A stretch of 62,379 nucleotides of DNA from an uncultured Candidatus Saccharibacteria bacterium (GTDB lineage Bacteria; Patescibacteriota; Minisyncoccia; UBA6257; Colwellbacteraceae). The notes under the pieces are model-generated. The model did no database searches. It was not told where the DNA came from and saw nothing but the letters and a program-made list of their open reading frames with translations. The position numbers were made by a program, and so were the translations under genes. Where the stretch lies: positions 1 to 62,379 of the forward strand of contig CAZRNY010000002.1 in NCBI GenBank assembly GCA_964601595.1, given 5' to 3'. The first letter of the stretch is position 1. The number at the start of each line of letters is the position of its first letter. Positions 3-58,580 of this stretch are shown piece after piece.

Positions 3-869
3 ATGGTATTTAGGAAAAAAGATCCTATACCTCAAGTACCGAGTCATATGAAACCAAGACAGGCTAGAATATTCGATTTTCCGCAAGGAGGAGAAAATAG
101 AGTGGACACTAGGAAGAGGATTCTTATCGTCTTCCTGATTATAGTCGCTCTCATTGTGCTCGCTTCCGCTGCGTGGATCATGAGGAGCTACGTTGTTAGC
201 CCTACTGATCCGGTAATCGATAACCCTGTTGTCGTCGAACCGAACAACAACTCTAATCCGGCCGTCGTTCCTACAACCGAACCACAACCGACAACAGAGC
301 CAACAGTTCAACCGACTACGGAACCTACAACTCAGCCGACGACTCAACCGACAACCAAGCCAGCAGAAGAAACTGTCCAACCTATTCCAATCGCAAGCAA
401 CTTTATTTTTACAGAGAAGGATTGGGAGAAAGTTTCAGTAAACTTCAAGGTAAGCGGAGAAAGATCTCCTGGATTTGCAGTAAGTCTTTTGAAAGGAGAT
501 ACGGTTTATGCTCCTTTTGATGGGTATATTCAAAAGATTATCTCTGGGGAAGGAGAGGCAAGAGTAATAGTAATTAAGATTACTACAGATCCTGATTGGA
601 CATTGGATAAGAATAGCGGAGCCGATGTTTCTGGACACTACTCTTTTTCTTTCGCAGCAAAATCCATTGATCTCATTGCTAACGGCCAAGTGAAAAAAGG
701 AGATCCTTTGTTTAAGATGGCTTCAGATACCGTTATATGGAGCCAATACTTTAAAGGGGATCATTCCTTATATGTATATCTTGGCGGACCATGGGGAGAG
801 ATAACTAATCCCTCAGAAAATCCAAAAGAATATCTCGGCCAGATTATGGCAATAGTTGAAACGGAGTGA
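3..869 (+). CDS. membrane-anchored surface protein with a Pro/Thr-rich stalk and conserved C-terminal domain (local paralog 1)
   Basis: ORF starts at ATG 3 and might extend upstream of the window. It has one N-terminal TM helix (ILIVFLIIVALIVLASAAWIM) and a TEPTTQP-type linker at nt ~270-365. The C-terminal domain has 'VYAPFDGYI...GQVKKGDPLF', a barrel-sandwich/lipoyl-like hybrid pattern, and is shared with ORF 980-1681. Confidence 0.7.
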   Translation: MVFRKKDPIPQVPSHMKPRQARIFDFPQGGENRVDTRKRILIVFLIIVALIVLASAAWIMRSYVVSPTDPVIDNPVVVEPNNNSNPAVVPTTEPQPTTEPTVQPTTEPTTQPTTQPTTKPAEETVQPIPIASNFIFTEKDWEKVSVNFKVSGERSPGFAVSLLKGDTVYAPFDGYIQKIISGEGEARVIVIKITTDPDWTLDKNSGADVSGHYSFSFAAKSIDLIANGQVKKGDPLFKMASDTVIWSQYFKGDHSLYVYLGGPWGEITNPSENPKEYLGQIMAIVETE

Positions 870-979
870 CGCGGATGATGATTGGTACGACTCGACATGT
901 TCTTTTCGCCCGCCGTTATAACCGGCGGGTGAATTGTTTCCACATCCTTTGATATAGCAAAGATGTTATCATTATTCTT

Positions 980-1681
980 ATGAAGGCGAGGTCAATATTG
1001 ATCATCTCGGGAGCTGTTGTGCTAGCTCTTATTATCGGGCTAGTAATATACCTCGCGGCAAGCAGGCCGGAGGCGCTCCTCACAAATGTTTTTAACGGTT
1101 CCAATTTAAATAATAACGAGCCGATTAGCGGAGAAAACGGAAACAATCAATCCGTTGTCGAAGGGGAGGTAAACGAGCTTGGTATTCCTTCTGTTGTGAA
1201 GGAAGAAGTCGGCTGGTGTTTGTTTCTGAGTGAAAAAAAATGTGGTCTTCTTTCTGTTGCTTATGAAATATCAGGAAAAAGAAGAGCTGGTCTTGTGGGT
1301 AACTTGCCAGAAAAGGTAGTAGTTTATGCTCCTTTTGATGGGTATATTCATAGAATATGGTCTGGTTCTGGCAATGAAAAAGCATCTGTTATAAAAATAA
1401 CCACTGATCCTAAGTGGTCTTTAGAAAAAAATAATGGAGCTGATGCCTCTGGGTATTATTCTTTCTCTTTTGCGGCAGAATCAGTAGATTTACTAATAAA
1501 CGGGCAAGTTAAGAAAGGCGATCCTATATTTAGGATATCTTCTAGTGATACTGTATGGAAACAGTACCTAAAAGGGAATAATAATTTGTATATATATCTT
1601 GGCGGACCATGGGGAGAGATAACTAATCCCTCAGAAAATCCAAAAGAATATCTCGGCCAGATTATGGAAGTTATGAAATAA
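980..1681 (+). CDS. membrane-anchored surface protein, paralog 2 of ORF 3-869 (no PT stalk)
   Basis: N-terminal TM helix. The C-terminal domain aligns with ORF 3-869 ('VYAPFDGYIH', 'ITTDPKW', 'GQVKKGDPIF', 'YLGGPWGEITNPSENPKEYLGQIM'). Its stop lies 1 nt before the next gene's start. Confidence 0.75.
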   Translation: MKARSILIISGAVVLALIIGLVIYLAASRPEALLTNVFNGSNLNNNEPISGENGNNQSVVEGEVNELGIPSVVKEEVGWCLFLSEKKCGLLSVAYEISGKRRAGLVGNLPEKVVVYAPFDGYIHRIWSGSGNEKASVIKITTDPKWSLEKNNGADASGYYSFSFAAESVDLLINGQVKKGDPIFRISSSDTVWKQYLKGNNNLYIYLGGPWGEITNPSENPKEYLGQIMEVMK

Positions 1682-1682
1682 G

Positions 1683-4367
1683 ATGAAAAAAATATTATTT
1701 TTCCTAGTTTCTTTCATCGCTCTCTTTATACTTTTCCCTTCGGTAGCTGATGCTGCTTGTTATAGAGCGACTCAGCAGTGTAATAACGGACCATCAAGGA
1801 CTGATTCGGGTGGTTGCGGAACCGCTTGCGGATCAATGTGTGATGATACAACTTTCACTTATGACGCGGAAGGAGCAGATGACTGTAGGGTAACAGCTGC
1901 AAGTACTGTTGCTTGGAAAAAATACGAAGGAAGGAGATATGCTTGCTCTGGTTATTGCGATTTCGGAAATCCTACAGGAACTTGTTATACCTACTCTTTC
2001 ACTTTCGTTATTCTCGATGAAGTCTGTTCTACTGCAGATAAGCACTATCCGAATAGGTCATCTAATAAATCTAATCTTTATGCTGGATATTGTGATTGCG
2101 GAAGCGTAAGTGATAATCCTTATAAAGCCTGTTGCGTAGTCAATTCGGATGAAACAAGGAGTCCGGTCGATGCCATTACTTTCGATTATATGAACGATGG
2201 ATATGAGCCGCCGGAAGGAAATTGTCCTTCGGGATCACAGGTAGTCGTCGGGTCATTTTGTCCGCAGCCGCCGACTGTGAGCGTAGCTTCGGCCTGTACT
2301 TCTACCGGAGTGCCGGTAGTCAGATGGTCTTCTAATGGAGATAGGTGTACTTCGAATAATCTCTCTACCGGAGATGCTGCTAATAATACGATCGGTGTTC
2401 CCGCGACTGTCGGCAGAACATATACGATTACTTGTTATAACGATTACTATTATTATAGGCCTGATTATTCCGGAGGAAGGAGAACTGATTCCGCTTCCGC
2501 TTCCGCTTCGGTAACGGTTGCGGCTTGCACGAATTGTCCTTCGCCAGCTATCTGCTACTCGAGATATACGCCAAGTCAGACGACCTGTGCCGGGTTCAAT
2601 AAGAGTGGTCTGACACTTACCGATGGAACGCAATATTCTTCGGTCTATCTTTCAAGAGGATCAGGAAGCGATCCATGCGGAGCTGGAAATACTAATATCT
2701 GCTGTTTAGTTACTTATGAATGCGGAAGATGTTCTACTAACCCGGGGCAGGAAACGAACTGGATAGATTGGACCGACGCGAACGCAGACGGAACGATCTG
2801 TAACGACTACAACAATAATCGAAGGACTTCCGCTAACGATTCTCGTTGCACAGCGACTCGCTACTATGCCTGTAACGCCTCTAACTCATGCGCTCAGGTT
2901 TCCGCTTCGGATGCTACAAGATGTGCGGCCGGACAGAATACGGCAGCGGGAAGATCATGCTTCACTACGGCGAACTGCAACAATACCTGCGCTGCTTCTT
3001 CATTCTCCGTTTCCCTTACCGCTTCGCCGAACCCGATCAATTCGGGAGGATCTTCTACTCTTTCGTGGACGAGTGTCGGTGCTGTATCTTGCTCTCTTAA
3101 TCAGGGGATAGGATCGGTTCTTACTTCTTCGTCGAGATCGGTTTCGCCTTCATCGACGACGACCTATACGATTACTTGTACCAACTCTTCTGGATTAACG
3201 ACTGCTTCTTCGGCAACGGTTACCGTCAATGCGACCGCAGGGTGCTACTCGGGACCGAGAGCGGTTTCTGCTGATATATCGGCAACCAGAGATTGTCTTC
3301 CGGAACAGCCGGGACAGATAGTCGATACGAGACTTAATTGGTCCGGATCGGTATCTAATGTCTGCGGATCGGTCATCGGCGGAGGAAGTCCTTCAAACTA
3401 CTCGATATCCTGCTCTAACTCTTCGAGTAACTGGTCCGGTTCAGGATCCGGAAGCTCGTCGGTATCAGGAAACTATAATCTGAACGGCGTATCGCAGACT
3501 CAGGATTATTCGCTTAGCTGTTCGAGAAGCGACTATACTTGTTCGAGCAGTCAGACATTCTCGAGTCATGACAACCAGAATGATGAGAGATGTACTTCGA
3601 GCTGCACAAGCCTAAAGTCTTCATATCCGGCAATAAGCTCATGCAGTTGTTCTCAAGGAAGCTGTGTGGAGCGCTGGAGCGATGAAGCTCATTGTACCCA
3701 ACATGCTTGCGGATCAACTCACGAAGTCTGTGATTCGCGCTGTGTCGGATGGTCTGATCCTGATCCGATTACCGGAGGAAGGACTTGCGAGGGCGGTTAT
3801 GAAGATTACAATTGTCGTGATGTCTGTAATTACGACGGACCTTGTATCGCTTGGTCGTGCCGCTACTATGCGGAAAACCAGTCGGTATCATCTAGCAATG
3901 TTTGCGGATCATCAGATTCTGATTCTCAGCAGGTAAGGTTTATCAAGAAGCCGGGAATACCTAATAACGATCTGACGACCAATCCGTTCAAAGCGCAGAT
4001 CCTTCTCAACCAACTCATCAACCTCGTGTGGAATGTATCAACTCCTAATTCTGGAGTTCCGACCACTCTTCGTTGTACACCGACTGTTCGTTCGGGAGGA
4101 GATGGGGAAGGATGGATCGGAGCACAGGATAGCCTCCAGTCGAACGGAACGAAGAGCGGTGCCTCGCCGAATAATACGACGACATATCGCTTGGATTGTA
4201 GAAACAGGGATAATATAAAGCCTAATACCTGTTACAACGATTCGGATAGGAAGGAATTCGAGGTAAAGGTCTTCGAGCCTACCATTGAGGAGAAATCGCC
4301 TACACTCAGGGAAATCTTCGGAAAGGTGTTCGGAGGACTTATATCTGATAAGTTCAAAAACTTCTAA
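1683..4367 (+). CDS. large secreted cysteine-rich surface protein with Ig-like modules
   Basis: Sec-type signal peptide (MKKILFFLVSFIALFILFPSVADA). Cys density is very high throughout. Three modules show the pattern '..LSW/VRW..C....TYTITC' (SSTLSWTSVGAVSC...TTTYTITC; VVRWSSNGDRC...RTYTITC; LVWNV..LRC...TTTYRLDC). The gene is tightly coupled to the upstream paralog. Confidence 0.8.
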   Translation: MKKILFFLVSFIALFILFPSVADAACYRATQQCNNGPSRTDSGGCGTACGSMCDDTTFTYDAEGADDCRVTAASTVAWKKYEGRRYACSGYCDFGNPTGTCYTYSFTFVILDEVCSTADKHYPNRSSNKSNLYAGYCDCGSVSDNPYKACCVVNSDETRSPVDAITFDYMNDGYEPPEGNCPSGSQVVVGSFCPQPPTVSVASACTSTGVPVVRWSSNGDRCTSNNLSTGDAANNTIGVPATVGRTYTITCYNDYYYYRPDYSGGRRTDSASASASVTVAACTNCPSPAICYSRYTPSQTTCAGFNKSGLTLTDGTQYSSVYLSRGSGSDPCGAGNTNICCLVTYECGRCSTNPGQETNWIDWTDANADGTICNDYNNNRRTSANDSRCTATRYYACNASNSCAQVSASDATRCAAGQNTAAGRSCFTTANCNNTCAASSFSVSLTASPNPINSGGSSTLSWTSVGAVSCSLNQGIGSVLTSSSRSVSPSSTTTYTITCTNSSGLTTASSATVTVNATAGCYSGPRAVSADISATRDCLPEQPGQIVDTRLNWSGSVSNVCGSVIGGGSPSNYSISCSNSSSNWSGSGSGSSSVSGNYNLNGVSQTQDYSLSCSRSDYTCSSSQTFSSHDNQNDERCTSSCTSLKSSYPAISSCSCSQGSCVERWSDEAHCTQHACGSTHEVCDSRCVGWSDPDPITGGRTCEGGYEDYNCRDVCNYDGPCIAWSCRYYAENQSVSSSNVCGSSDSDSQQVRFIKKPGIPNNDLTTNPFKAQILLNQLINLVWNVSTPNSGVPTTLRCTPTVRSGGDGEGWIGAQDSLQSNGTKSGASPNNTTTYRLDCRNRDNIKPNTCYNDSDRKEFEVKVFEPTIEEKSPTLREIFGKVFGGLISDKFKNF

Positions 4368-8524: not shown

Positions 8525-10906
8525 ATGCGGAATGTGATTTGGTTTAAAGATCTGTCTATAGGGGATGTGCCACAGGTGGGAGGCAAGAATGCCTCTCTTG
8601 GAGAAATGTTCAATGCCCTCGTGCCTAAAGGAGTAAATATCCCGGGAGGATTCGCCATAACCGCCGAAGCCTATCAATATTTTCTCAAAGAGGCTGGCTT
8701 GTTCGATAGGATGACTGAGGTACTTGAGACTCTCGATACGAGTAATATCAAGAATCTTCAGGCGAGAGGCAAGAAGATCCGTGAGATGATAGTCGCGGCC
8801 GAACTGCCTAAGGATCTTAAAGAAGATATAACGAAAGCTTACAAGGAGATGTGCGAGATGTACGGCGCGAAGAATGTTGATGTCGCCGTAAGAAGCTCGG
8901 CTACCGCCGAAGATCTTCCGGGTGCGTCGTTCGCCGGACAGCAGGACACCTATCTCAACATTTACGGAGAGAAGATGCTTCTTGGTGCCGTGAAGCGCTG
9001 TTTCGCTTCGCTCTTTACCGACCGCGCGATGTCCTATCGCGTCGATAAAGGATTCGATCATATGAAGACTTATCTTTCTGTCGGCGTACAGAAGATGGTT
9101 CGTTCGGATAAGGCTTCTTCGGGAGTCATGTTCACTATCGATCCGGAAACCGGATTTGAGAACGCACTTGTCATAAACGGAACCTGGGGTCTTGGAGAAC
9201 TTATTGTCCAAGGAGAAGTCATCCCTGACGAATTTAAGGTATTTAAGCCGACTCTTAAGGAAGGCTATAAAGCGATCATTGCGAAGAACCTCGGTACGAA
9301 GGATATGACTATGATCTACGGCAAGAAAGGAAAGACTGTCGAGATCATAAAGACGACTACTGCTAAAAAGAACACCTATACGCTTTCCGATGATGAAGCC
9401 ATCACAATGGCAAAGTGGGGAGTGATCATCGAGGATCACTATAAGAAGCCCATGGATATAGAGTGGGCGAAGGATGGAATATCGAACGAGCTCTATATAG
9501 TCCAGGCGAGACCGGAGACGGTTCATGCTTCTGGAGACAAGAGCGTTATCCGCGATTATGTAATGAAGAAGCCTTCCGGAAACATGCTTGCAAAGGGAGC
9601 TGCTGTCGGAAGCAAGATAGCTGAAGGAAAAGCGAAGGTCATCAAAGATGTCAAAGGAATCCTGACCTTCAAGAAAGGAGAAGTTCTTGTTACGAGAATG
9701 ACGGATCCTGATTGGGAGCCGATCATGAAGATTGCCTCCGCGATCGTTACTGATGAGGGAGGAAGGACTTCCCATGCCGCTATCGTTTCGAGAGAGCTTG
9801 GAATTCCCTGCATCGTCGGCTGTAAGACTGCATCTAAAGTAATCAAGCCGGGAGCTCAAATAACGGTAGATTGCTCGACTGGAGGAGAGGGAATCGTCTG
9901 GGCAGGAAAGTGCGAGTGGGAAACCAAGGAATATAAGATCGATATCTCAAAGAGGCCGAAGACGAAGATCATGATGAATATCGGATCTCCGGAAGAAGCT
10001 TTCGAATCTTCGTTTTTGCCGAACGACGGAGTCGGTCTGGCTCGCGAAGAGTTCATTATCGCTGCGCATATAAAAGCTCATCCTATGGCTCTTCTTGAAA
10101 TGAAGACCTTGAAGGACAAGAAAGCGAAGGCAGAACTCGAGAAATTGACTGTCGGATACAAGGATAAGGCAGAATACTATACGGAAAAGCTTGCCGAAGG
10201 AATCGGCCAGATTGCCGCAGCTTTCCATCCTAAGCCGGTAATCCTCAGGTTCTCCGACTTCAAGACGAATGAATATGCGACTCTTCTTGGCGGAAAAGAA
10301 TTTGAACCGGTGGAATCGAACCCGATGATCGGCTGGAGAGGTGCTTCCCGTTACTATGACAAACGCTTCGACAGGGCGTTTGGATTAGAGTGTGAAGCTG
10401 TTCGCCGAGTGCGTGAGGATATGGGGCTTACGAACCTTATCGTGATGATTCCGTTTTGTAGAACAGTCGATGAAGGGAGAAAGGTCATCAAGAAGATGGC
10501 GGAATACGGATTGACTCAGGGCGAGAATGGATTAAAGGTCTACGCCATGTGCGAGATACCAGCAAATGTCATCTTGGCTGATGAGTTCCTTGATGTATTT
10601 GATGGATTTAGCATCGGATCGAATGACCTCACTCAGCTTACTGTTGGAATAGACAGAGACAGTGCTGATCTTGGAAAAATCGCGAACGAACAGGATGAAG
10701 CGGTAAAGAAACTTATCGCGACCGCAATCGAAGTCGCGAAGAGAAAAGGAAAGTATATCGGAATCTGTGGCCAGGCCCCTTCTGATTATGAAGACTTTGC
10801 GACTTTCCTTGTAGAGAAGGGAATAGCTAGTATGTCTTTAAATCCTGATACCGTGCTTTCGACGACGAAAGCGATACTTAGGAAGGAAGAAGAGCTGGGA
10901 ATATAA
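8525..10906 (+). CDS. ppsA: phosphoenolpyruvate synthase (pyruvate, water dikinase)
   Basis: N-terminal 'GDVPQVGGKNASLGEM'; phosphohistidine swivel motif 'GGRTSHAAIVSRELGIPCIVG'; C-terminal PEP-utilising TIM barrel ('GSNDLTQL'). Length is 793 aa. Confidence 0.93.
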   Translation: MRNVIWFKDLSIGDVPQVGGKNASLGEMFNALVPKGVNIPGGFAITAEAYQYFLKEAGLFDRMTEVLETLDTSNIKNLQARGKKIREMIVAAELPKDLKEDITKAYKEMCEMYGAKNVDVAVRSSATAEDLPGASFAGQQDTYLNIYGEKMLLGAVKRCFASLFTDRAMSYRVDKGFDHMKTYLSVGVQKMVRSDKASSGVMFTIDPETGFENALVINGTWGLGELIVQGEVIPDEFKVFKPTLKEGYKAIIAKNLGTKDMTMIYGKKGKTVEIIKTTTAKKNTYTLSDDEAITMAKWGVIIEDHYKKPMDIEWAKDGISNELYIVQARPETVHASGDKSVIRDYVMKKPSGNMLAKGAAVGSKIAEGKAKVIKDVKGILTFKKGEVLVTRMTDPDWEPIMKIASAIVTDEGGRTSHAAIVSRELGIPCIVGCKTASKVIKPGAQITVDCSTGGEGIVWAGKCEWETKEYKIDISKRPKTKIMMNIGSPEEAFESSFLPNDGVGLAREEFIIAAHIKAHPMALLEMKTLKDKKAKAELEKLTVGYKDKAEYYTEKLAEGIGQIAAAFHPKPVILRFSDFKTNEYATLLGGKEFEPVESNPMIGWRGASRYYDKRFDRAFGLECEAVRRVREDMGLTNLIVMIPFCRTVDEGRKVIKKMAEYGLTQGENGLKVYAMCEIPANVILADEFLDVFDGFSIGSNDLTQLTVGIDRDSADLGKIANEQDEAVKKLIATAIEVAKRKGKYIGICGQAPSDYEDFATFLVEKGIASMSLNPDTVLSTTKAILRKEEELGI

Positions 10907-10996
10907 GCTGTATAGTTTGATAAGAGCCGCCCCTTATAAGGGGCGGCTCTTTAATACTCGGTCATTATAGGACTTCTATTATATAATTCAGACTAT

Positions 10997-12010
10997 ATGA
11001 AAATAGCTTTCTTCGAGATAGAGCCTTGGGAGGCTGAATATATGAAGGAGAGCCTTCCTGGGCACGAGCTCTTTTTCTATGAAGACAGGCTTGATGCCGA
11101 TCATCTGCCTGAGAGATTCGACTTCGATGTCGTCTCGATCTTCACGAACTGCAAGCTCGACTCACAGACTATGGCGCTTTTTCCTCAATTGAAATTCGTT
11201 GCAACAAGAAGTACTGGATACGATCATATCGATATCATTGAGGCGGAAAAGAAGAGTGTTCCGATCTCCAATGTTCCTTCGTATGGAGAAAATACTGTCG
11301 CTGAATTCGCTTTCGCGCTGCTACTCGCTCTCTCAAGAAAGATATTTAAGTCGTACGACCGCATAAAGGAATCTGGATCGTGGTCGCTCGACGGACTTCA
11401 AGGATTTGATCTTAAAGGAAAGACGATAGGGGTTGTCGGAACAGGAAGGATAGGAAGACATTCAATAAGGATGGCAAAAGGCTTCGATATGAATGTAGTA
11501 GCTTTCGATGCTTTTCCTGATGATAAGCTTGCGGTGGAAGCGGGAATAAAATATCTTCCATTCGAAGAGCTCTTAAAAGTATCGGATATCATCACTATCC
11601 ATGTTCCTGATCTGCCGACGACTAGGCATATGATCAATATGGAGAACATTAGTCTTATAAAGAGAGGGGCGGTCATTATAAATACCGCGAGAGGAAGCGT
11701 CGTCGAAACGGCGGCTCTCGTAAAAGGACTGAGCGAAGGCATTATTGGTGGAGCTGGACTAGATGTACTTGAGGAAGAAGTACCGACGAAGGACGAGAAA
11801 GGATTCCTTCTGGGAGGCAGGACGGATGAACATGATCTGAAGATAATGCTTCAGAACCATCTTCTTATAGATATGGATAATGTCATTATCACTCCGCATA
11901 ATGCTTTCAATACTAAGGAAGCTTTGGAGAGAATATTGCAAACTACAGTCGAGAACATAAATGCCTTTGTAATAGGGGGACCGAAGAATGCAGTCAGAAG
12001 CCATAAGTAA
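10997..12010 (+). CDS. D-isomer-specific 2-hydroxyacid dehydrogenase (D-lactate dehydrogenase-like)
   Basis: Rossmann motif 'GKTIGVVGTGRIGRH'; 'INTARG' and 'LDV...E' catalytic-domain pattern; 337 aa. Confidence 0.8.
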   Translation: MKIAFFEIEPWEAEYMKESLPGHELFFYEDRLDADHLPERFDFDVVSIFTNCKLDSQTMALFPQLKFVATRSTGYDHIDIIEAEKKSVPISNVPSYGENTVAEFAFALLLALSRKIFKSYDRIKESGSWSLDGLQGFDLKGKTIGVVGTGRIGRHSIRMAKGFDMNVVAFDAFPDDKLAVEAGIKYLPFEELLKVSDIITIHVPDLPTTRHMINMENISLIKRGAVIINTARGSVVETAALVKGLSEGIIGGAGLDVLEEEVPTKDEKGFLLGGRTDEHDLKIMLQNHLLIDMDNVIITPHNAFNTKEALERILQTTVENINAFVIGGPKNAVRSHK

Positions 12011-12446
12011 CACGAAGAAGAGAGTAATCTCTTTCATAGCTGCCTTTATTGTAACGGCGTTCATTTCTCTCATCGGAGGGGCGGTATCCTTTCTTCTCTT
12101 TCTTCTTATGATCTCACTCAATCTTCCTTTAGCGGCTCTTGCCGTAGGAGAACTTGGAGTAGGAGCTTCGATATATCTCGCATCTTTCTTCGGAGTGAGG
12201 GCGGGAGGCCGTTCCGGCGACGATAAGGGCTCGAAGGCGGGAGTCTATACTTTCGTTATAATTGAAGCGATCATGGCTCTTGGAAGCGGAGCATTATCTT
12301 CTATTTCCGGGGAAGGAGGGCATGTTTTCGGAATAGTCAGGGCTATAGCTTATATAGTAATCATGGTCATTGCTGTTAAAATTTCTCTCGGATCGAGAAA
12401 AAATAAGGAAGAAAAGGCGCTTGCCGAAACTGAATTAAAAAAATAG
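11988..12446 (+). CDS. hypothetical multi-pass membrane protein
   Basis: About 4 hydrophobic helices. It overlaps the upstream gene by 23 nt, so the start is uncertain. Confidence 0.4.
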   Translation: MQSEAISNTKKRVISFIAAFIVTAFISLIGGAVSFLLFLLMISLNLPLAALAVGELGVGASIYLASFFGVRAGGRSGDDKGSKAGVYTFVIIEAIMALGSGALSSISGEGGHVFGIVRAIAYIVIMVIAVKISLGSRKNKEEKALAETELKK

Positions 12447-12487
12447 ACTTAAATTCGGTTCGAAATTATAAACATAAAAACAAACAA

Positions 12488-12691
12488 ATGGGATTCTTTA
12501 ATCAGATAAAAGCCGCTCAGGACATGATGAAGAACATGACTCCGGAGCAGGTAAAGGAAATGATGGAACAGGCCAAAGAGAGCCAGAAGATGCTCGAAGA
12601 TATGATCACTAAGGCTATAGATAAGGCTGTCCGCGATCGTGATCTTATGTCTAGAGACGAGGTTAAGAAGATGATCGAAAACTCCAAATAA
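12488..12691 (+). CDS. small Met/Lys/Glu-rich helical protein, unknown function
   Basis: 67-aa ORF followed by terminator 'aagcgcgcc aaaa ggcgcgctt' (12699-12724). Confidence 0.45.
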   Translation: MGFFNQIKAAQDMMKNMTPEQVKEMMEQAKESQKMLEDMITKAIDKAVRDRDLMSRDEVKKMIENSK

Positions 12692-21979: not shown

Positions 21980-24979
<3,000 letters not shown>

Positions 24980-25059
24980 GGTCATTCAGGAGCGGATAAT
25001 GATTTTCTGCACAGAATAATACAATTTGATTTTTCGTTAAGCGTTTGATATATTCACTT

Positions 25060-25168
25060 TGCTCGGTGTTAACCATAGATTGTCCCACCCGATCCCATTC
25101 CGAACTCGGAAGTGAAAGATCTATGGAGCGATGATAGTCTTTCGAGGCAAAAGTAGCTTTGCCGGGCA
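25060..25168 (+). rRNA. rrf: 5S ribosomal RNA
   Basis: 'cccacccgatcccattccgaactcggaagtgaaag' core. Helix I closes with tgctcggt/gccgggca. Confidence 0.9.
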
Positions 25169-42765: not shown

Positions 42766-44799
42766 TTATTCTGAAACCTCTTTTTTTTCTTCTGGCTTTT
42801 CTTCCGTTCCCGGTTTCGTCCAGCTTGCAAAATCACAGGTAGGGTATCTTTCACAACCGAAAAATCCTTTCCCTCTTCTTGTCCTCTTTAAGATTATCTT
42901 TCCCTCATTACATTTCGGACAGATCATGTCTTCTCCTTTTTCGTCCTTGATATAGATCCTCTCAATGGCGATCTTCTTCGTGTTTTTACATTCTGGATAT
43001 CCGGAGCAGGCGATGAAGCGGCCGAAGCGGCTTCTCTTTATGACCATCGACTTTCCACATTTATCGCAGATCTCGTCGGTCGGTTCTTCGTTTTTCTCTT
43101 TCACGACCGATTCGTATTTCTCGGCCAGCTTTTTGGCGAACGGATTATAAAAATCTCCGATGACTTTACGCCAATCCATTTCTCCTTCCGCTACATCGTC
43201 GAGATCTTTTTCCATCTTGGCGGTGAAGGCGATATCGACTATCTCGGGGAAGTGCTCGACGAGGATCTTATCTACTGATTCGCCGATTTCGGTCGGAATG
43301 AATCTTCTCGCGTCGTCTTTCTTAACATATCCTCTTGCTTGGATCACAGAGATTATCGGCGCGTATGTTGAAGGACGACCGACACCGTTCTCCTCAAGCG
43401 TCTTGATAAGGCTTGCTTCGTTGTATCTCGGAGGCGGTTCGGTCTTATGATCATCTCTTGCGATAGAGATAAGGGAAAGTAATTCGCCACCCATGATATC
43501 AGGTGCTTCTTTTTCTTCGAACTTAGCCGGCCATATTTTCAGATAGCCGTCGAACTTAAGGCGGCTTCCGCCTGAAGATAGCTCATATGACCTATTCCCT
43601 TTCCCCAAAATGACCGCTCTTGAGGCTCCAAAGACAGCAGAGGGAAGTTGGGAAGCTATAAAACGTTTCCAGACTATATCGTAGAGTTTTTTATGGCGCT
43701 CTTCTAAGGGGATTGATTCGGCGAGAACTGAAGGATTTGTTGGGCGGATAGCTTCATGAGCTTCCTGTGCCGACTTCGATTTAGTCTTAAAAAAGCGCGG
43801 GCAATCGACGGCATATTCTTTTCCGAGATTCTCGTTTATCCAAATACCGGCTGCGGCAACCGATTCTTTCGAAAGGTTTACCGAATCAGTCCTCATGTAG
43901 GTTATGAATCCTTTCTCATAAAGCTCCTGCGCGACCATCATGGTCTGCTTGGCAGAGAAGCGGAATCTCTTAGAACACTCCTGTTGAAGGGTGCTTGTCG
44001 TGAACGGGGGATTCGGTGCGCGTCTTACCTCTCTTTCTTCGATCGAAGAAACGGAGAAGGAAGCAGACTTCAAATCGGTGATCGCGAGATCAGCCTCGTC
44101 CGCGGACATTATTCCCGGCTTGCCGATATTTTTACCTTCGATCTTTGTAAGGGAAGCTGAAAAAGGTTTTTTCTTTTTTCCTTCAAGGTCGGCAGAGATT
44201 GTAAAATAGTCTTCGGAGATGAAACTTCTTATTTCTTCTTCTCTCGAAACGATAAGACGAACGGCAGCGGATTGAACCCTTCCGGCAGAAAGCCCGCTCA
44301 TTACCTTCTTCCAAAGGAAAGGAGAGAGTTTATAGCCGACGAGTCTGTCGAGAATCCTTCTCGCAGTCTGAGCATCGACGAGTCTCATATCTATGGTACG
44401 CGGATTCTTCAATGCCTCTTTGATGGCTGACTCGGTGATTTCGTGGAAGACGATCCTTTCGGCCGTCTTTTCATCAACAGAAAGAGCCTTAGCAAGGTGC
44501 CAGGCGATAGCTTCTCCTTCGCGGTCCTCGTCAGTTGCGAGAATAACGCTCTCAGCAGAAGCGGCAGCTTTCTTTAATTCGGTAACCCTTTTCTTGCTTT
44601 TTAACGGGATTATATATTGAGGCTCGAAGTCATGCTCGAGATCGATGCCGAGCTTCGATTTAGGAAGATCGCGTATATGACCGAAAGAGGACTCCACTTG
44701 GAATCCTTTGCCTATGAACTTTGATATTGTTTTCGCCTTGGTAGGAGACTCGACGATCACGAGTACTCCTTTGCCTGCGGCTTTCTTTTTAGCCGTCAT
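42766..44799 (-). CDS. topA: DNA topoisomerase I
   Basis: Toprim 'LVIVESPTKAKTISKF', 'ATDEDREGEAI', active-site region 'ITYMRTDS', C-terminal CxxC zinc ribbons. Confidence 0.95.
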   Translation of the reverse strand: MTAKKKAAGKGVLVIVESPTKAKTISKFIGKGFQVESSFGHIRDLPKSKLGIDLEHDFEPQYIIPLKSKKRVTELKKAAASAESVILATDEDREGEAIAWHLAKALSVDEKTAERIVFHEITESAIKEALKNPRTIDMRLVDAQTARRILDRLVGYKLSPFLWKKVMSGLSAGRVQSAAVRLIVSREEEIRSFISEDYFTISADLEGKKKKPFSASLTKIEGKNIGKPGIMSADEADLAITDLKSASFSVSSIEEREVRRAPNPPFTTSTLQQECSKRFRFSAKQTMMVAQELYEKGFITYMRTDSVNLSKESVAAAGIWINENLGKEYAVDCPRFFKTKSKSAQEAHEAIRPTNPSVLAESIPLEERHKKLYDIVWKRFIASQLPSAVFGASRAVILGKGNRSYELSSGGSRLKFDGYLKIWPAKFEEKEAPDIMGGELLSLISIARDDHKTEPPPRYNEASLIKTLEENGVGRPSTYAPIISVIQARGYVKKDDARRFIPTEIGESVDKILVEHFPEIVDIAFTAKMEKDLDDVAEGEMDWRKVIGDFYNPFAKKLAEKYESVVKEKNEEPTDEICDKCGKSMVIKRSRFGRFIACSGYPECKNTKKIAIERIYIKDEKGEDMICPKCNEGKIILKRTRRGKGFFGCERYPTCDFASWTKPGTEEKPEEKKEVSE

Positions 44800-44800
44800 G

Positions 44801-45637
44801 TTAGTGTCTTAATAAAAGATAACCCTCAGGAGTGTCTTCCGCCAAGCCGAGCAAAGAAAGCTCGGACAAGATTCTCATCGTTTCTCGGGGTTCGAGGTCG
44901 GTCAACTCTGATATCTTATCGATAAAGAGAGGGTTGCTGGATGATAGTAATGCCTTTATCACTAATTCGGAATCTTTATCAAGGGGAAGGCTATTTTCTT
45001 TTCGTTCTGCCTTCTTTAGTCCCAAGTCTTCGATTATGTCACCGATCGAGGACACTAACCTTGCCCCGTCTCTAATCAGCAGATGGGAACCTCTGAAATT
45101 AGGATTATCGAAAGATCCGGATAAGACAAGAACATCTCTGCCAAATTCGGCGGCACAGCCAGCGGTGCGGATTGAGCCGGACTTCTCGGGTGCTTCGATC
45201 ACGATGGTCGCAAAGGAGAGTCCGGCAACGATTCTGTTCCTTTCGAGGAAGCGATGTTTCATAGGGCGTTCGCCTTTTTCGTATTCGGAGATGATCGATC
45301 CGCCTTTTTCGATGATCTTTTCCGCCAAATTTCTATTCGATGAGGGATATATGATATCGGTACCACAGGCGAGAACTGCGACTGCCTTTCCGTTTGCTGA
45401 AAGACATCCTTCATGAGCGGCGGCATCTATACCGAGAGCCAGACCGCTTATGATGGGGATGCCGATAAGAGCGAGCTCTCTTCCTAGATCGCGCGCGAAC
45501 AAAAGGCTTTTAGATGAAGGGTTTCTCGTGCCGACGATAGCTACTCCGGAAAAGTTTTTGTCGAGCATTGCGCCTCTTATGGAAAAATTCTTAAGAGGCG
45601 GAGAAATTTCCTTAAGGAGGTCCGGAAAGGAATCCAT
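44801..45637 (-). CDS. dprA: DNA-processing protein DprA (Smf)
   Basis: 'VAIVGTRNPS', 'ISGLALGIDAAAHEG', 'VIEAPEKSGS'. Its start lies 1 nt after the topA stop. Confidence 0.88.
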   Translation of the reverse strand: MDSFPDLLKEISPPLKNFSIRGAMLDKNFSGVAIVGTRNPSSKSLLFARDLGRELALIGIPIISGLALGIDAAAHEGCLSANGKAVAVLACGTDIIYPSSNRNLAEKIIEKGGSIISEYEKGERPMKHRFLERNRIVAGLSFATIVIEAPEKSGSIRTAGCAAEFGRDVLVLSGSFDNPNFRGSHLLIRDGARLVSSIGDIIEDLGLKKAERKENSLPLDKDSELVIKALLSSSNPLFIDKISELTDLEPRETMRILSELSLLGLAEDTPEGYLLLRH

Positions 45638-49798: not shown

Positions 49799-50335
49799 GT
49801 GATCGAACATTCGACCTGGGCAATCGTCCTAAAAAGAGAGTCAACTAAGGAAAAGGACGACGACTATACCCTCTTTACCTGGCATCTTGGAAAAGTGAAG
49901 GCAAGGACGGCTTCGACCAGGAAAATAACTTCGAAACTAGCGGGGCATCTGGAACCGGGAACGATAGGTCAGGTCCGTATAGTTCAGAGAAACCCAGAAA
50001 GCCCGATGAGACTTATCGAGGCGTTAGCTGAAACAAGGACAAAGGATCCGCAAGCGATAAAGGTTCTGGAATTTGCCGAAAAGATAACGCCGTTTCATGA
50101 AGAGGATCATGCCCTCTTTATTACTCTTAAAAGAGCGGTGATAGATGGAGTCGATGAGAGATCCGGGTTCAGAAAGATATTGGCTCTTTCCGGATTTGAT
50201 CCGAAAGGCGCTTCGTGTGATTGGTGTGGCTCCAAAAAAATTGCCTATTTCCTGCCTGAAGATATAATTTTTCTATGCAAACAGTGCCTCGAAAAGAGGA
50301 AGGACATGGTTTCAAATGGGGGCGCATCGCAATAA
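49799..50335 (+). CDS. recO: DNA repair protein RecO (short form)
   Basis: N-terminal OB-fold pattern 'AIVLKRESTKEKDDDYTLFTWHLGKVKARTASTRKITSKLAGHLEP' and a C-terminal zinc motif 'CDWCGSKK....FLCKQC'. Confidence 0.6.
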   Translation: MIEHSTWAIVLKRESTKEKDDDYTLFTWHLGKVKARTASTRKITSKLAGHLEPGTIGQVRIVQRNPESPMRLIEALAETRTKDPQAIKVLEFAEKITPFHEEDHALFITLKRAVIDGVDERSGFRKILALSGFDPKGASCDWCGSKKIAYFLPEDIIFLCKQCLEKRKDMVSNGGASQ

Positions 50336-51969
50336 CCGGAGGAATAGTCCTTCTCGCCGTCGTTATTGGAGTATTTATGTTCCTTTCGAGGGGAAGGGAT
50401 GTCCAGATATCCATAGATATAAATGGACCGGTCAGGCTTGGAGAACCCTTTGATATCGAGGTTATCGCGGAGAATGGAAGCACGGAGACTCTTCGCGATG
50501 TCTCTCTTTCGCTTACTCTTCCTGAAGGAGTTTCCTTTTCGGATGGCGCAAGCGCGAGGAGAGTGAAAAAAATCGGCGTAATGGAACCAGGGGGATCGAA
50601 TAAGGAGATATTCAGGGTTATTGTCTCTGAAGATAAGGATGGAGAAGAAGTGCTCAGGGCGGAGGCTAGCTATATACCGAAGTCTCTTGGCAGGGAGATG
50701 AAAGTATTTTCTGAATCTTTTCTCGAAATAGAGAAGTGGCTGACTCTTTCTATAGAAGCGCCGGAGAAGGCGATTTCTGGAGAAGATTTCCAGTGGGTCG
50801 CTTCCTATAAAAATAACTCTGATAAGGAGTGGAAGATAAAGCTTTTGGCAGATTTACCTGAGGGATTAGAGACCGACTTCAAGGAAAGCGAGATAGCGAT
50901 CGCTCCGAATGAGGAAGGAAAGAAGAGTTTCTCGGGAAGCATAATCATGGAAGAGGGTTCTTCTTTTGAGATAAGGACTTATGCTAAGGGTAAGATTGGA
51001 GATAAGGAACAAGAGATCGATTCCGTAAGGATTCAGGTTCTTATCGCTCCTTCTCCTCTTTCGATAAAGATATCGACTGAAGACGATAAGGATCAGATAT
51101 CGGTAGGAGAAAAAATCGAGTATGCCGTTTCGGTAAGAAACTCAACCGATGTTCCTATGCAGAATGTGACCGTGAGAGCTGTTTTGAAAGGCGGGATGAT
51201 AGATATCGAGGGATTAGAATCCTCGGGTACGATAGATAAAGCGAATAAGCTTATAGTCTGGAATATCGACAATGCATCCGAGCTTAAGGAGATAGCTCCT
51301 AGGTCTTCGGTTTCTTTTCCGGTGGTTGTTCCGATAAAAGAAGATTTTTCCATAAAGAAGCTTTCGGATAGGAATTTTATCGTGAGGATGGATGTGCGTG
51401 CAGAATCGCCGACGGTTCCATATCTTACTAAAAGTCTGAAAACGGTAAATATCGCTTCCAAAGAAATAAAGATAGCGGGGAAGCTCATGGTAGATGCAAC
51501 TGCTTTTTTCCGTGACGCGAAGTCGGGAATAATGAATGAGGGGGATCTGCCATTCCAGTCGGGCGTTCCGATAAACTTGACTATCCATTGGAAGGTTGCC
51601 GATTACGGGAATGATATGGAGAATATAAGTATATCGGCAGAGCTTCCGAGTGGCGTGGAGCCAACAGATAGCAAAATGGCCGATGCGGGAGACCTATCGT
51701 ATGTAGCTGGAGAGAGGAAAATGGTTTGGAAGATACCGAAGGTTCTTGCAACCCAAGGAATACTCTCAAAAGAGCTGGAAGCAATCTTTCAACTGAAAGT
51801 AATTCCTTCGTCATCTTCTGTCGGCGGTTTTGCCCCTATTCTTAAAGAAACTTCAGTTGAGGCGACAGACTTGTTTACGGGATCGAAATATCAAGGTTAT
51901 GATGCGGCAATAGACTCATCCCTTGAGGATGACCCAACGATCGGCTCGATGGACGGAATAGTCAGATAA
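50275..51969 (+). CDS. membrane-anchored protein with repeated beta-sandwich (CARDB/DUF11-like) modules
   Basis: N-terminal TM helix followed by ~4-5 repeats of ~100 aa with alternating beta patterns. The first ATG overlaps recO by ~60 nt. Confidence 0.55.
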   Translation: MQTVPRKEEGHGFKWGRIAITGGIVLLAVVIGVFMFLSRGRDVQISIDINGPVRLGEPFDIEVIAENGSTETLRDVSLSLTLPEGVSFSDGASARRVKKIGVMEPGGSNKEIFRVIVSEDKDGEEVLRAEASYIPKSLGREMKVFSESFLEIEKWLTLSIEAPEKAISGEDFQWVASYKNNSDKEWKIKLLADLPEGLETDFKESEIAIAPNEEGKKSFSGSIIMEEGSSFEIRTYAKGKIGDKEQEIDSVRIQVLIAPSPLSIKISTEDDKDQISVGEKIEYAVSVRNSTDVPMQNVTVRAVLKGGMIDIEGLESSGTIDKANKLIVWNIDNASELKEIAPRSSVSFPVVVPIKEDFSIKKLSDRNFIVRMDVRAESPTVPYLTKSLKTVNIASKEIKIAGKLMVDATAFFRDAKSGIMNEGDLPFQSGVPINLTIHWKVADYGNDMENISISAELPSGVEPTDSKMADAGDLSYVAGERKMVWKIPKVLATQGILSKELEAIFQLKVIPSSSSVGGFAPILKETSVEATDLFTGSKYQGYDAAIDSSLEDDPTIGSMDGIVR

Positions 51970-57229: not shown

Positions 57230-57307
57230 AGTCATGGTCTGTAACAGAGTGCTTAAGGCTATGGAAGTGACATCGCTTTATAAGGCTCTCAGATAACATT
57301 TATCAAG

Positions 57308-57335
57308 AAGCGCGCCATTGTGGCGCGTTTTTTAG
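57308..57335 (+). terminator. rho-independent terminator after metG
   Basis: Stem 'agcgcgcc attg tggcgcg' plus T6. Confidence 0.7.
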
Positions 57336-57350
57336 TTATAATGAATCAAT

Positions 57351-58580
57351 ATGGATTTTCGGAATAAACAGCTGGGCTTTACTCTGACGGAGCTTATGAT
57401 ATCTATCGCGATCATCGCGATACTTTCGGCTACAGTCATCATCATCTTGGATCCGGGTGAATATCTAGCTTCTCCGAGAGATACTCAGAGAATAGGAGAT
57501 ATAAATTCTTTGAATAATGCCATCTCTCTCTATGCGAATGATGTAAGAGGATCGAAAGGAGATCTGAATAGGGTTTATATTTCCCTTCCGGATGCGAATG
57601 TTAATTGCACGACATACGCCGCATCGTTGCCGGTACTTCCTGCTGGATGGGAATACAGATGTGCGACAGTAGCGAACTACAAGAAGACTGATGGAACAGG
57701 ATGGCTACCAGTCAATCTGAACGCCATCAGCGGAGGATCGACTCTTACGGCGCTTCCGATCGATCCGGTAAATGCTGTTTCCGGATATCTATATTATTCC
57801 TATGCTAATTCCGCGACAGGGTGGGAAATAACCGCGACGACCGAGTCGAATAAGATGGGAGAAAAGTTTTCTAATGATGGAGGAACCAATGCTCTCTTTT
57901 ATGAGCTCGGTAAGAATATTACCGCCTTGCCTGATTTCTCGCTTGGCCAAAGCTGTAAGATCATCAAAGATAACTTTGCCCGGTCGACGGATGGAGTCTA
58001 TTGGATAGATCCCGATGGCGCTGGCGCGGAACCTGCCGTGCAGGCTTATTGTGATATGACGACCGATGGTGGCGGGTGGACGCTTGTTCAATCGACAGTG
58101 AAGGGACAGCCGGTAAATGCACAGTGGGCGGCGGCCTTTCCGACTCAGCTGACTCAGACTATCGGAACACCATCTCTTACTTCTCCGTACAGGATGGCGA
58201 TGAAATACTGGTACATGATACCTAATACGAGCTGGGCTAAGATGGCATTAACGACGGCGGAACAGAAGAAGACTTTTAATAAGTCTCCGATTTTTTCTCT
58301 GACAGGAGTAAATGCCGGTCCGACCGGATTTACATATACCGGAAGCGATCCGGCGATCGCACTTAACAGTCTAAGTAGTTATAACTGGAATACTTGTACG
58401 AATGGTATTGCTTACTTCAATTCTTCCTGTTGTAGTACATGCATACTTTATAACAACCCCGTTACCTACAATACGACCAATCAGCCGATGATGAGCACGA
58501 TAACGGCAGTCGATGGAAGTGCTATCCAGAAGTGGAATGGGCATGCCCCGCTTGATAGATTAAATATTTTTTCTAAATGA
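57351..58580 (+). CDS. type IV pilin-like protein with a C-terminal fibrinogen-like (YCDxxxxGGGW) domain
   Basis: Prepilin leader and cleavage/methylation motif 'MDFRNKQLG|FTLTELMISIAIIAILSA'. The mid/C-terminal 'CKIIKDNFARSTDGVYWIDPDG..AEPAVQAYCDMTTDGGGWTLVQ' matches the fibrinogen C-terminal domain signature. Confidence 0.8.
   Translation: MDFRNKQLGFTLTELMISIAIIAILSATVIIILDPGEYLASPRDTQRIGDINSLNNAISLYANDVRGSKGDLNRVYISLPDANVNCTTYAASLPVLPAGWEYRCATVANYKKTDGTGWLPVNLNAISGGSTLTALPIDPVNAVSGYLYYSYANSATGWEITATTESNKMGEKFSNDGGTNALFYELGKNITALPDFSLGQSCKIIKDNFARSTDGVYWIDPDGAGAEPAVQAYCDMTTDGGGWTLVQSTVKGQPVNAQWAAAFPTQLTQTIGTPSLTSPYRMAMKYWYMIPNTSWAKMALTTAEQKKTFNKSPIFSLTGVNAGPTGFTYTGSDPAIALNSLSSYNWNTCTNGIAYFNSSCCSTCILYNNPVTYNTTNQPMMSTITAVDGSAIQKWNGHAPLDRLNIFSK

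Follow-up and report, generated by a model that had tools for sequence, protein, structure and literature searches.

A stretch of 62,379 nucleotides from an uncultured Candidatus Saccharibacteria bacterium (GTDB lineage Bacteria; Patescibacteriota; Minisyncoccia; UBA6257; Colwellbacteraceae; GenBank assembly GCA_964601595.1, contig CAZRNY010000002.1, positions 1 to 62,379 of the forward strand), hereafter the window, contains an open reading frame (ORF) that raises the question of what a type IV pilin would do with a domain resembling the C terminus of fibrinogen. In the ORF listing of the window, this is one ORF of 409 aa at 57351..58580 on the plus strand, and a preliminary description of the DNA had read it as a prepilin fused to a fibrinogen-like domain (FReD), i.e. 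as a candidate pilus-borne lectin. We conclude that the protein is a well-supported modular pilin, the combination of pilin and fibrinogen domain as such having already been catalogued. Its distinguishing traits are a divergent, CCSTC-type FReD head, the rarity of this head and its occurrence in both bacteria and archaea. As to function, we consider it fairly probable that this bimodular type IV pilin acts as a pilus-borne adhesin.

Prepilin leader, pilin stem and fibrinogen-like head

The peptides quoted in the preliminary description lie in the ORF exactly where they were placed: KQLGFTLTELMISIAIIAILSA corresponds to residues 6-27, CKIIKDNF...DGGGWTLVQ to residues 202-247 (nt 57954-58091) and NTCTNGIAYFNSSCCSTC to residues 347-364. 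The N terminus, MDFRNKQLG followed by FTLTELMISIAIIAILSATVIII, has all the features of a class III signal peptide, i.e. a basic leader, Gly at -1, Phe at +1, Glu at +5 and ~20 hydrophobic residues. The leader MDFRNKQLG (residues 1-9) is encoded at 57351..57377 (+), and the region is recognised by PF07963 (N_methyl; residues 4-29; 32.7 bits vs a cutoff of 21.2) and TIGR02532 (residues 7-29; 26.5 bits vs a cutoff of 16.3). Moreover, the prepilin motif is the only one that a motif scan found in the window, it is in the correct frame, i.e. that of the remaining ORF, and it is kept in at least 13 orthologs. Prepilin peptidase is predicted to cut after Gly9, leaving Phe10 as the new N terminus and Glu14 as the +5 Glu; the processed N terminus would be methylated.

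The public gene call for this protein (P0001; 394 aa) starts at Met16 and lacks the prepilin leader, and its closest ortholog (P0002; 391 aa) is likewise called from an internal Met with the leader omitted. Because these calls begin at an internal Met, the leader is absent from the database entries and the pilin nature of the proteins is hidden. The precomputed annotations of both entries display only fibrinogen and COLFI domains.

The pilin stem comprises residues 10-190 (57378..57920, +). In an AlphaFold model of the full-length protein built with 18 homologs, residues 8-200 have a predicted local distance difference test score (pLDDT) of 70-90, and the stem is predicted to consist of a hydrophobic alpha-1N, a long alpha-1 and a beta-sheet globular domain. 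The long alpha-1 (residues 12-64) is modelled as helices 12-33 and 35-64, and the strands lie at 74-81, 101-106, 149-153, 158-163 and 183-187, so that the predicted stem has the 'lollipop' layout of pilins, a long alpha-1 on an antiparallel beta-sheet. Cys86 and Cys104 of the stem are invariant in the ortholog alignment. A linker, TALPDFSLGQ (residues ~191-200; 57921..57950, +; limits approximate), connects the stem to the head. The protein thus has the layout of a modular pilin, with a stem at residues 10-190, a linker of ~10-14 residues and an FReD head at residues 201-409.

The stem is 34-50% identical to many proteins of metagenome-assembled genomes (MAGs) labelled Patescibacteria and 34-40% identical to stand-alone pilins of ~230 aa. 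Homologous stems bear other heads, i.e. LamG, cadherin-like, FGE-sulfatase-like and YDG-repeat heads, the last as YDG-repeat-plus-FReD, as well as further FReD variants. One protein with a LamG head, P0074, has an N-terminal half 41% identical to the bacterial stem and the NCBI label 'Candidatus Aenigmatarchaeota archaeon'; it is either a binning error or a further cross-domain pilin case.

The FReD head, residues 201-409, is encoded at 57951..58577 (+). Its A-subdomain with the YCDMTTDGGGWT motif (residues 201-246; 57951..58088, +) is matched by NF040941, PF00147 and PF01410. NF040941 (GGGWT_bact) scores 75 bits vs a cutoff of 30 (E 3.4e-21) over residues 201-246 and the complete model (positions 1-46 of 46), and PF00147 (Fibrinogen_C) scores 28 bits vs a cutoff of 22, covering only profile positions 12-53 of 221. 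The proposed fusion of a type IV pilin to an FReD is thus borne out by four profiles, all above their curated cutoffs, together with the confident head model described below. Cys202 and Cys234 are invariant and likely form the A-subdomain disulfide. When the single sequence and a clade-only profile were searched against the PDB, matches to FReDs were limited to the ~50 residues of the A-subdomain, the best being intelectin-1 and XEEL over residues ~191-250 only; a mixed profile reached further into the PDB FReDs, aided by the more canonical related pilins P0026 and P0028.

In the full-length AlphaFold model, residues 240-409 have a pLDDT <40 and are unusable. A second model, of the head only (residues 190-409) and based on a 117-sequence alignment, has a mean pLDDT of 82.3 and a predicted TM score (pTM) of 0.83. 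In a Foldseek search of this model against the PDB, the top 50 matches are all FReDs (50/50; ~236 aligned columns, probability 1.00), including M-, L- and H-ficolin, MFAP4, FIBCD1, tenascin-C and -R, angiopoietin-1 and -2, FGL1, tachylectin-5A and fibrinogen beta and gamma. TM scores are 0.54-0.66 to isolated FReDs of ~220 residues, and lower if normalised to the longer fibrinogen chains; sequence identity over the full-length alignments is 12-20%. Since the head model is confident and its structural matches to FReDs extend over the full length, the fold is real beyond the short motif and takes in the whole C-terminal ~210 residues; as modelled, the head is a complete FReD with A, B and P subdomains. 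We rejected an intelectin identity, because intelectins matched the A-subdomain only and none is among the top 50 Foldseek matches.

A homology search with the head alone identified a distant tier of proteins at 27-35% identity that align over the entire head and have in common with it the landmarks WTLVQ, TIGTP, YRLxG, PWFYxxCCSTC, PM and a terminal Y/F-x-R. P0026 and P0028 match PF00147 at positions 11-191 and 11-208 of 221, respectively, and bridge the window sequence AYFNSSCCSTC to the canonical PWWYxxC. The head is rich in invariant residues in the 23 bacterial and archaeal homologs compared. Like the FReDs of animals (ficolins, tachylectin-5A, FIBCD1, MFAP4, tenascin and angiopoietin), it has the three-subdomain fold, the A-subdomain motif and disulfide, and equivalents of the P-subdomain disulfide; unlike them, it has no Asp in the Ca2+ loop, has Cys in place of the acetyl-pocket His, and sits on a pilin rather than on a collagen-like or coiled-coil stalk.

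Proposed function and its alternatives

In the mechanism that we propose, prepilin peptidase would cleave after Gly9 and the hydrophobic alpha-1N would insert the protein into a type IV pilus made mainly of smaller pilins with the same stem. Because its 210-residue head is bulky, the FReD-pilin would most likely be a low-abundance subunit, probably at the pilus tip. The head would act as an adhesin for a conserved ligand on the surface of a partner or host cell or on another substrate. This ligand would probably be bound otherwise than in the Ca2+-stabilised acetyl pocket of ficolins, the classical site having been remodelled into a disulfide-rich CCSTC loop amid invariant Trp, Tyr, Asn and Gln; a glycan is plausible, and a protein equally so.

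The proposal draws on two known systems. Modular pilins were defined from PilB, with a vWA module, and PilC, with a concanavalin-like lectin module, of Streptococcus sanguinis and are widespread (PMC8179133); both proteins act as adhesins (PMC8179133; PMC9934059). Like PilB and PilC, the window protein combines a class III signal peptide and pilin module with a short linker and a bulky, separately folding module, and the role that we propose for it is likewise that of a pilus-presented adhesin. Unlike theirs, its head is an FReD rather than a vWA or LamG module, it comes from a Patescibacterium, and its stem, at ~180 aa, is larger, with no significant structural match found in the PDB. Among the Patescibacteria, the lectin-like minor pilin PilX2 of Nanosynbacter lyticus is required for efficient host binding, and glycans of the host wall are implicated (PMC11623550). 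PilX1 and PilX2 of strain TM7x resemble the window protein in being Patescibacterial pilins with a C-terminal accessory domain, lectin-like in their case; where the window protein has an FReD, they carry a beta-jelly roll and a seven-bladed beta-propeller. The genes for PilX1 and PilX2 are also part of pilus loci, and their products have no canonical PilD-type signal peptide; that of the window protein is a textbook case, and its gene has housekeeping neighbours. By analogy with Saccharibacterial PilX2 (PMC11623550), a role in episymbiont attachment is plausible.

Several observations weigh against the proposed function. We aligned the window clade by MAFFT with the P-subdomain segments of FIBCD1 and tenascin-R as printed by HMMER (residue numbers of the P-subdomain are domain numbering + 194). 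In this alignment, the P-subdomain Cys cluster C349...C360-C361-x-x-C364 (58395..58442, +) places C349 and C360 at the canonical NCA...WWYxxC disulfide pair, and these two residues would form a disulfide. There is, however, no Asp or Glu within the 15 residues before C349 (PAIALNSLSSYNWNTC) where FIBCD1 and tenascin-R carry DRDxD, i.e. the canonical Ca2+ loop is absent; the region is ~6 residues shorter in the window clade, and the clade consensus is also free of acids. For the residues that we take to line the S1 acetyl pocket, only the His position was compared, the pocket Tyr positions not being reliably mappable: the His that follows the second P-subdomain Cys (NCH in FIBCD1 and tenascin-R) is replaced by Cys361 (SSC-C361). 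The would-be binding loop, residues 340-359, is moreover the lowest-confidence part of the head model (pLDDT 53-57). As for the stem, Foldseek with the full-length model found no solved pilin at E <= 0.001, the best pilin being PilS (1q5f) at E 2.5; the low-confidence head of this model may have degraded the search. Neither a prepilin peptidase nor PilB or PilC was found in the window by a motif scan, by Pfam scans that covered 40 ORFs or by tblastn searches with PilB, PilC, FlaI and FlaJ as queries; the Pfam and tblastn scans turned up housekeeping genes only. Finally, tip location, low abundance and adhesion are all features that we infer.

These residue comparisons bear on the preliminary description, which had presented the domain as a binder of carbohydrates or acetyl groups: because the binding chemistry of ficolins is not retained, the wording 'lectin or acetyl-group binder' amounts to an analogy, and because the canonical Ca2+ and acetyl-site residues of FReDs are missing, no ligand can be named. 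From its sequence, the head represents a distinct FReD subtype with a remodelled classical Ca2+/acetyl site. Within the clade, CCSTC, which includes Cys364, is invariant, and the P-subdomain Cys residues are invariant or nearly so. Other invariant residues of the P-subdomain are D333, N339, W346, N347, F356, N357, Y373, N377, Q378 and D388, and such a dense set of invariant residues fits a conserved binding surface. The CCSTC motif is also present in the distant MAG tier, labelled mainly Myxococcota. The related pilin P0028 keeps DRDNDQNSGNCA, and canonical sites thus occur on other pilin-FReDs.

The alternative closest to the preliminary description is a lectin of the ficolin or tachylectin type, with acetylated sugars or other carbohydrates bound by the head via a canonical Ca2+-stabilised S1 pocket. 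The fold matches ficolins, FIBCD1 and tachylectin-5A, the equivalents of the P-subdomain disulfide, C349 and C360, are present, and P0028 is more canonical, matching PF00147 positions 11-208 of 221 at 71.6 bits; however, given the missing acids before C349, the loop shortened by ~6 residues, the His-to-Cys361 replacement and a clade-only profile that matches the PDB FReDs over the A-subdomain alone, we regard canonical binding as unlikely. A different possibility is that no long pilus is formed and that the signal peptide serves export or anchoring, the protein being displayed in a short pseudopilus or a 'bindosome'-like structure for substrate capture. A well-established parallel is that of archaeal substrate-binding proteins, which are known with class III signal peptides; the gene has housekeeping neighbours and is not part of any pilus operon, and the ATPase encoded near an archaeal homolog resembles the bindosome ATPase BasE (214 bits, far below the cutoff). 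We nevertheless think this improbable: the stem comprises a complete pilin globular domain whose homologs are encoded near PilB and PilC, several orthologs lie near PilB-like ATPases, and to our knowledge FReDs have no role in nutrient uptake.

Two further explanations we hold to be very improbable. Were the protein a major pilin, every subunit of the filament would carry an FReD head and the pilus would be sheathed in binding domains. No other pilin gene was found in the window, and the linker might let the heads splay outward; against this, there are smaller pilins that consist of the same stem alone, and it is these that the machinery operons contain, the tandem alternative heads of relatives fit interchangeable minor subunits, and modelling of the comparable PilB of S. 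sanguinis gave steric clashes inside the filament body (PMC8179133). Weak, sub-threshold similarity to the N termini of GspG, GspH and ComGE and the presence of dprA in the window might point to a subunit of a competence (DNA-uptake) pilus or of a type II secretion pseudopilus, with a head unrelated to adhesion. These matches, however, are confined to the shared N-terminal motif and lie far below the cutoffs, and we know of no FReD that binds DNA. Moreover, in N. lyticus, T4P-2 pilin mutants retained competence (PMC11623550). dprA adjoins topA (42766-45637, minus strand) and is the sole competence-linked gene seen in the window.

A link between the adhesin-bearing pilin that we favour and pilus machinery is provided by its relatives. 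The gene for the stand-alone stem pilin P0101 adjoins that for a second pilin, and a PilB-like T2SSE ATPase and a PilC-like T2SSF protein are encoded in the same locus; the FReD-pilin orthologs in three loci (L004, L005 and L063) sit 6-7 kb from a PilB-like ATPase.

Distribution of the head in bacteria and archaea

Bacterial FReDs had been described as rare, which does not hold for the family at large: in an exhaustive phmmer search of 1.84 billion cluster representatives (50%-identity clusters), 5,329 representatives match the ~50-residue A-subdomain motif at E <= 1e-3, and a dedicated bacterial NCBIfam model exists. Matches to the whole head number only two, P0003 with a bacterial stem and P0021 with an archaeal stem, i.e. 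the CCSTC-type head subtype is rare. Among the GTDB species representatives, we found three close-clade loci, two labelled Patescibacteria and one just 'bacterium', and a scan of metagenomes yielded another five among 490 relatives.

Most members of the NF040941 family have just the ~50-residue A-subdomain, often repeated in giant proteins. The YCDxxxxGGGW A-subdomain occurs in up to 15 copies in giant proteins of 1,000-7,950 aa (P0234-P0317), apparently as a repeat unit in its own right, the remaining FReD being absent. The non-pilin relatives in NF040941 that do align over the whole head, encoded in MAGs labelled mostly Myxococcota/Deltaproteobacteria and some otherwise, resemble the window head at 25-35% identity and share CCSTC and PM; unlike the window protein, they are not pilins and have Cys-rich or MopE-type N termini.

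The same head is present in P0015-P0022, P0025 and L065, which are 58-70% identical to it over its full length and have the same invariant residues. These proteins are archaeal pilins that have the head in common with the window protein but not the stem: their N termini are archaeal class III signal peptides, e.g. KRG before LSTIVVTLILVVLSLVAVG and KRA before ISVVIGYVLLIAISIV, and their stems are of two mutually unrelated types, neither similar to the bacterial stem. The contig of P0021 encodes an archaeal-type phenylalanyl-tRNA synthetase (PheRS; pheT_arch 489 bits vs 283, PRK04172 517 vs 350) and a sub-threshold RNase P component 3, and its PheS-alpha is 78-83% identical to proteins named 'Candidatus Pacearchaeota archaeon' or 'Nanoarchaeota archaeon'. 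The archaeal carriers are Pacearchaeota-like DPANN archaea. The gene for P0022 is followed by a second FReD gene, and FlaI-like and FlaJ/UpsF-like assembly genes lie 3.6-9 kb downstream with five ORFs between. Assembly GCA_040961665.1 (L001/L003) has two PheS-alpha genes, 100% and 85% identical to the query, on two large contigs and probably mixes two related Pacearchaeota-like genomes; on account of the two differing PheS-alpha genes, we dropped the idea that P0021 and P0022 come from one archaeal genome.

When the heads were placed in a neighbour-joining tree with the distant MAG tier (labelled mainly Myxococcota/Deltaproteobacteria) as root, those on bacterial stems came out as monophyletic (95/100 bootstraps) and those on archaeal stems as a sister group or a basal grade. 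Repeated cross-domain swapping of heads was considered and rejected, the tree instead fitting a single bacterial clade beside or within the archaeal-stem heads. The one bacterial clade favours a single cross-domain event together with a change of stem within the archaea. Between the domains, the heads are 58-70% identical, which comes close to the 64-83% among bacterial orthologs and far exceeds what vertical descent between domains would leave. Horizontal transfer of the head, in either direction, is the simplest reading. Among the orthologs, the head is 64-83% identical, whereas the stem is 39-70% identical. Only tentatively, and with more doubt than conviction, do we suggest that the CCSTC head is a mobile adhesin cassette passed between two groups of ultrasmall episymbionts, bacteria of the candidate phyla radiation (CPR) and DPANN archaea, carried on at least three unrelated stems, one bacterial and two archaeal, and under stronger constraint than these, imposed by a conserved surface ligand bound via a non-classical site.

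The combination of pilin and fibrinogen domains is listed in Dataset S1 of a 2021 study, in which eight proteins have the architecture IPR012902-IPR002181 and two have IPR012902-IPR013545-IPR002181 (PMC8179133). In our literature searches, no paper dealt with a fibrinogen-like head on a pilin or with the sharing of such a head with archaea; those combining pilin with FReD, or Patescibacteria with pilin and fibrinogen, returned none, and those on bacterial FReDs and horizontal transfer nothing relevant. The rarity of the head, its conservation above that of the stem, its archaeal occurrence and a metG-tatD slot with three tandem pilins appear to be unreported.

Gene neighbourhood, expression and implications

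The order aminoacyl-tRNA synthetase, M16 peptidase, AI-2E transporter, MetG, pilin-FReD, TatD and LeuS is kept in Patescibacteria MAGs, the part from pilin to TatD and LeuS being kept in L006, L059, L062 and L064; the housekeeping proteins of L006 are 44-71% identical to their window counterparts. In L059, the slot between metG and tatD (8644-12507) contains three tandem modular pilins, with a LamG head, a window-type FReD (P0003) and a variant FReD (P0023), vs one in the window (57230-58580). The slot resembles a small variable locus of pilin-head cassettes.

Upstream of the pilin gene, metG is closed by an intrinsic terminator hairpin (57305..57333, +) with a G+C stem (57311-57317 / 57321-57327) and a T-run (57328-57333). 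The RNA folds at -18.2 kcal/mol (z = -5.6 vs shuffles), and an inverted repeat scan finds the same element. Because this strong hairpin with its T-run closes metG, the pilin gene begins a transcription unit of its own. The A-rich 5' flank and the T-run 3' flank of the terminator also pair, and the hairpin could terminate transcription from either side.

As the preliminary description had noted, a TATAAT hexamer resembling a -10 element (57337..57342, +) is read from the sequence 8 nt upstream of the pilin ATG, and no GGAGG-like Shine-Dalgarno sequence lies between the two, as judged by eye. A promoter scan made no call on this hexamer, which it missed because a good -35 element is absent; TATAAT would nevertheless be a putative promoter. 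Three orthologous loci likewise have TATAAT or CATAAT 3-7 nt 5' of the ATG and no Shine-Dalgarno sequence (L059, ~9985-10003; L006, ~9410-9424; L005, ~9355-9370), comparable with 57337-57353 of the window, an arrangement whose conservation suggests a leaderless or nearly leaderless pilin mRNA. At the other end of the gene, the 4-nt overlap with tatD that had also been described is an ATGA in which the pilin stop and the tatD start overlap (58577..58580, +, from the ORF coordinates and the sequence), and it points to co-transcription or translational coupling of the two genes. The pilin would thus probably be expressed from its own -10 element on a leaderless mRNA with tatD, apart from the genes for the pilus machinery.

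Elsewhere in the window, genes for 23S rRNA (21980-24981) and 5S rRNA (25062-25167) are present with no adjacent 16S gene, the upstream neighbour being a mechanosensitive-channel-like ORF. Three consecutive large ORFs (288, 233 and 894 aa) at 3-4367 have no Pfam match, and a 564-aa DUF11 / transglutaminase-Ig-like protein is encoded at 50275-51969, with synteny kept in L059; these ORFs and the DUF11 protein may be further surface proteins.

How Patescibacteria recognise and hold their partners is largely obscure, the sole genetic evidence being that on lectin-like minor pilins in one oral lineage. The pilin described here adds a structurally confident candidate for attachment from an environmental lineage, in which a fold of animal innate immunity has a remodelled site. 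In automated annotation, this protein and at least one ortholog are no longer recognisable as pilins. With its compact, disulfide-stabilised build, the head (residues 201-409) is suited to recombinant expression and direct ligand tests. That DPANN pilins carry a near-identical head suggests an exchange of adhesin modules across domains, between organisms of similar lifestyle, and such exchange would help to explain the diversification of host range in the CPR and DPANN radiations. If the head is indeed a mobile cassette, the same attachment chemistry would be used in bacterial type IV pili and in archaeal pili, and the metG-tatD slot would be a small 'head-swapping' locus for pilus tips.

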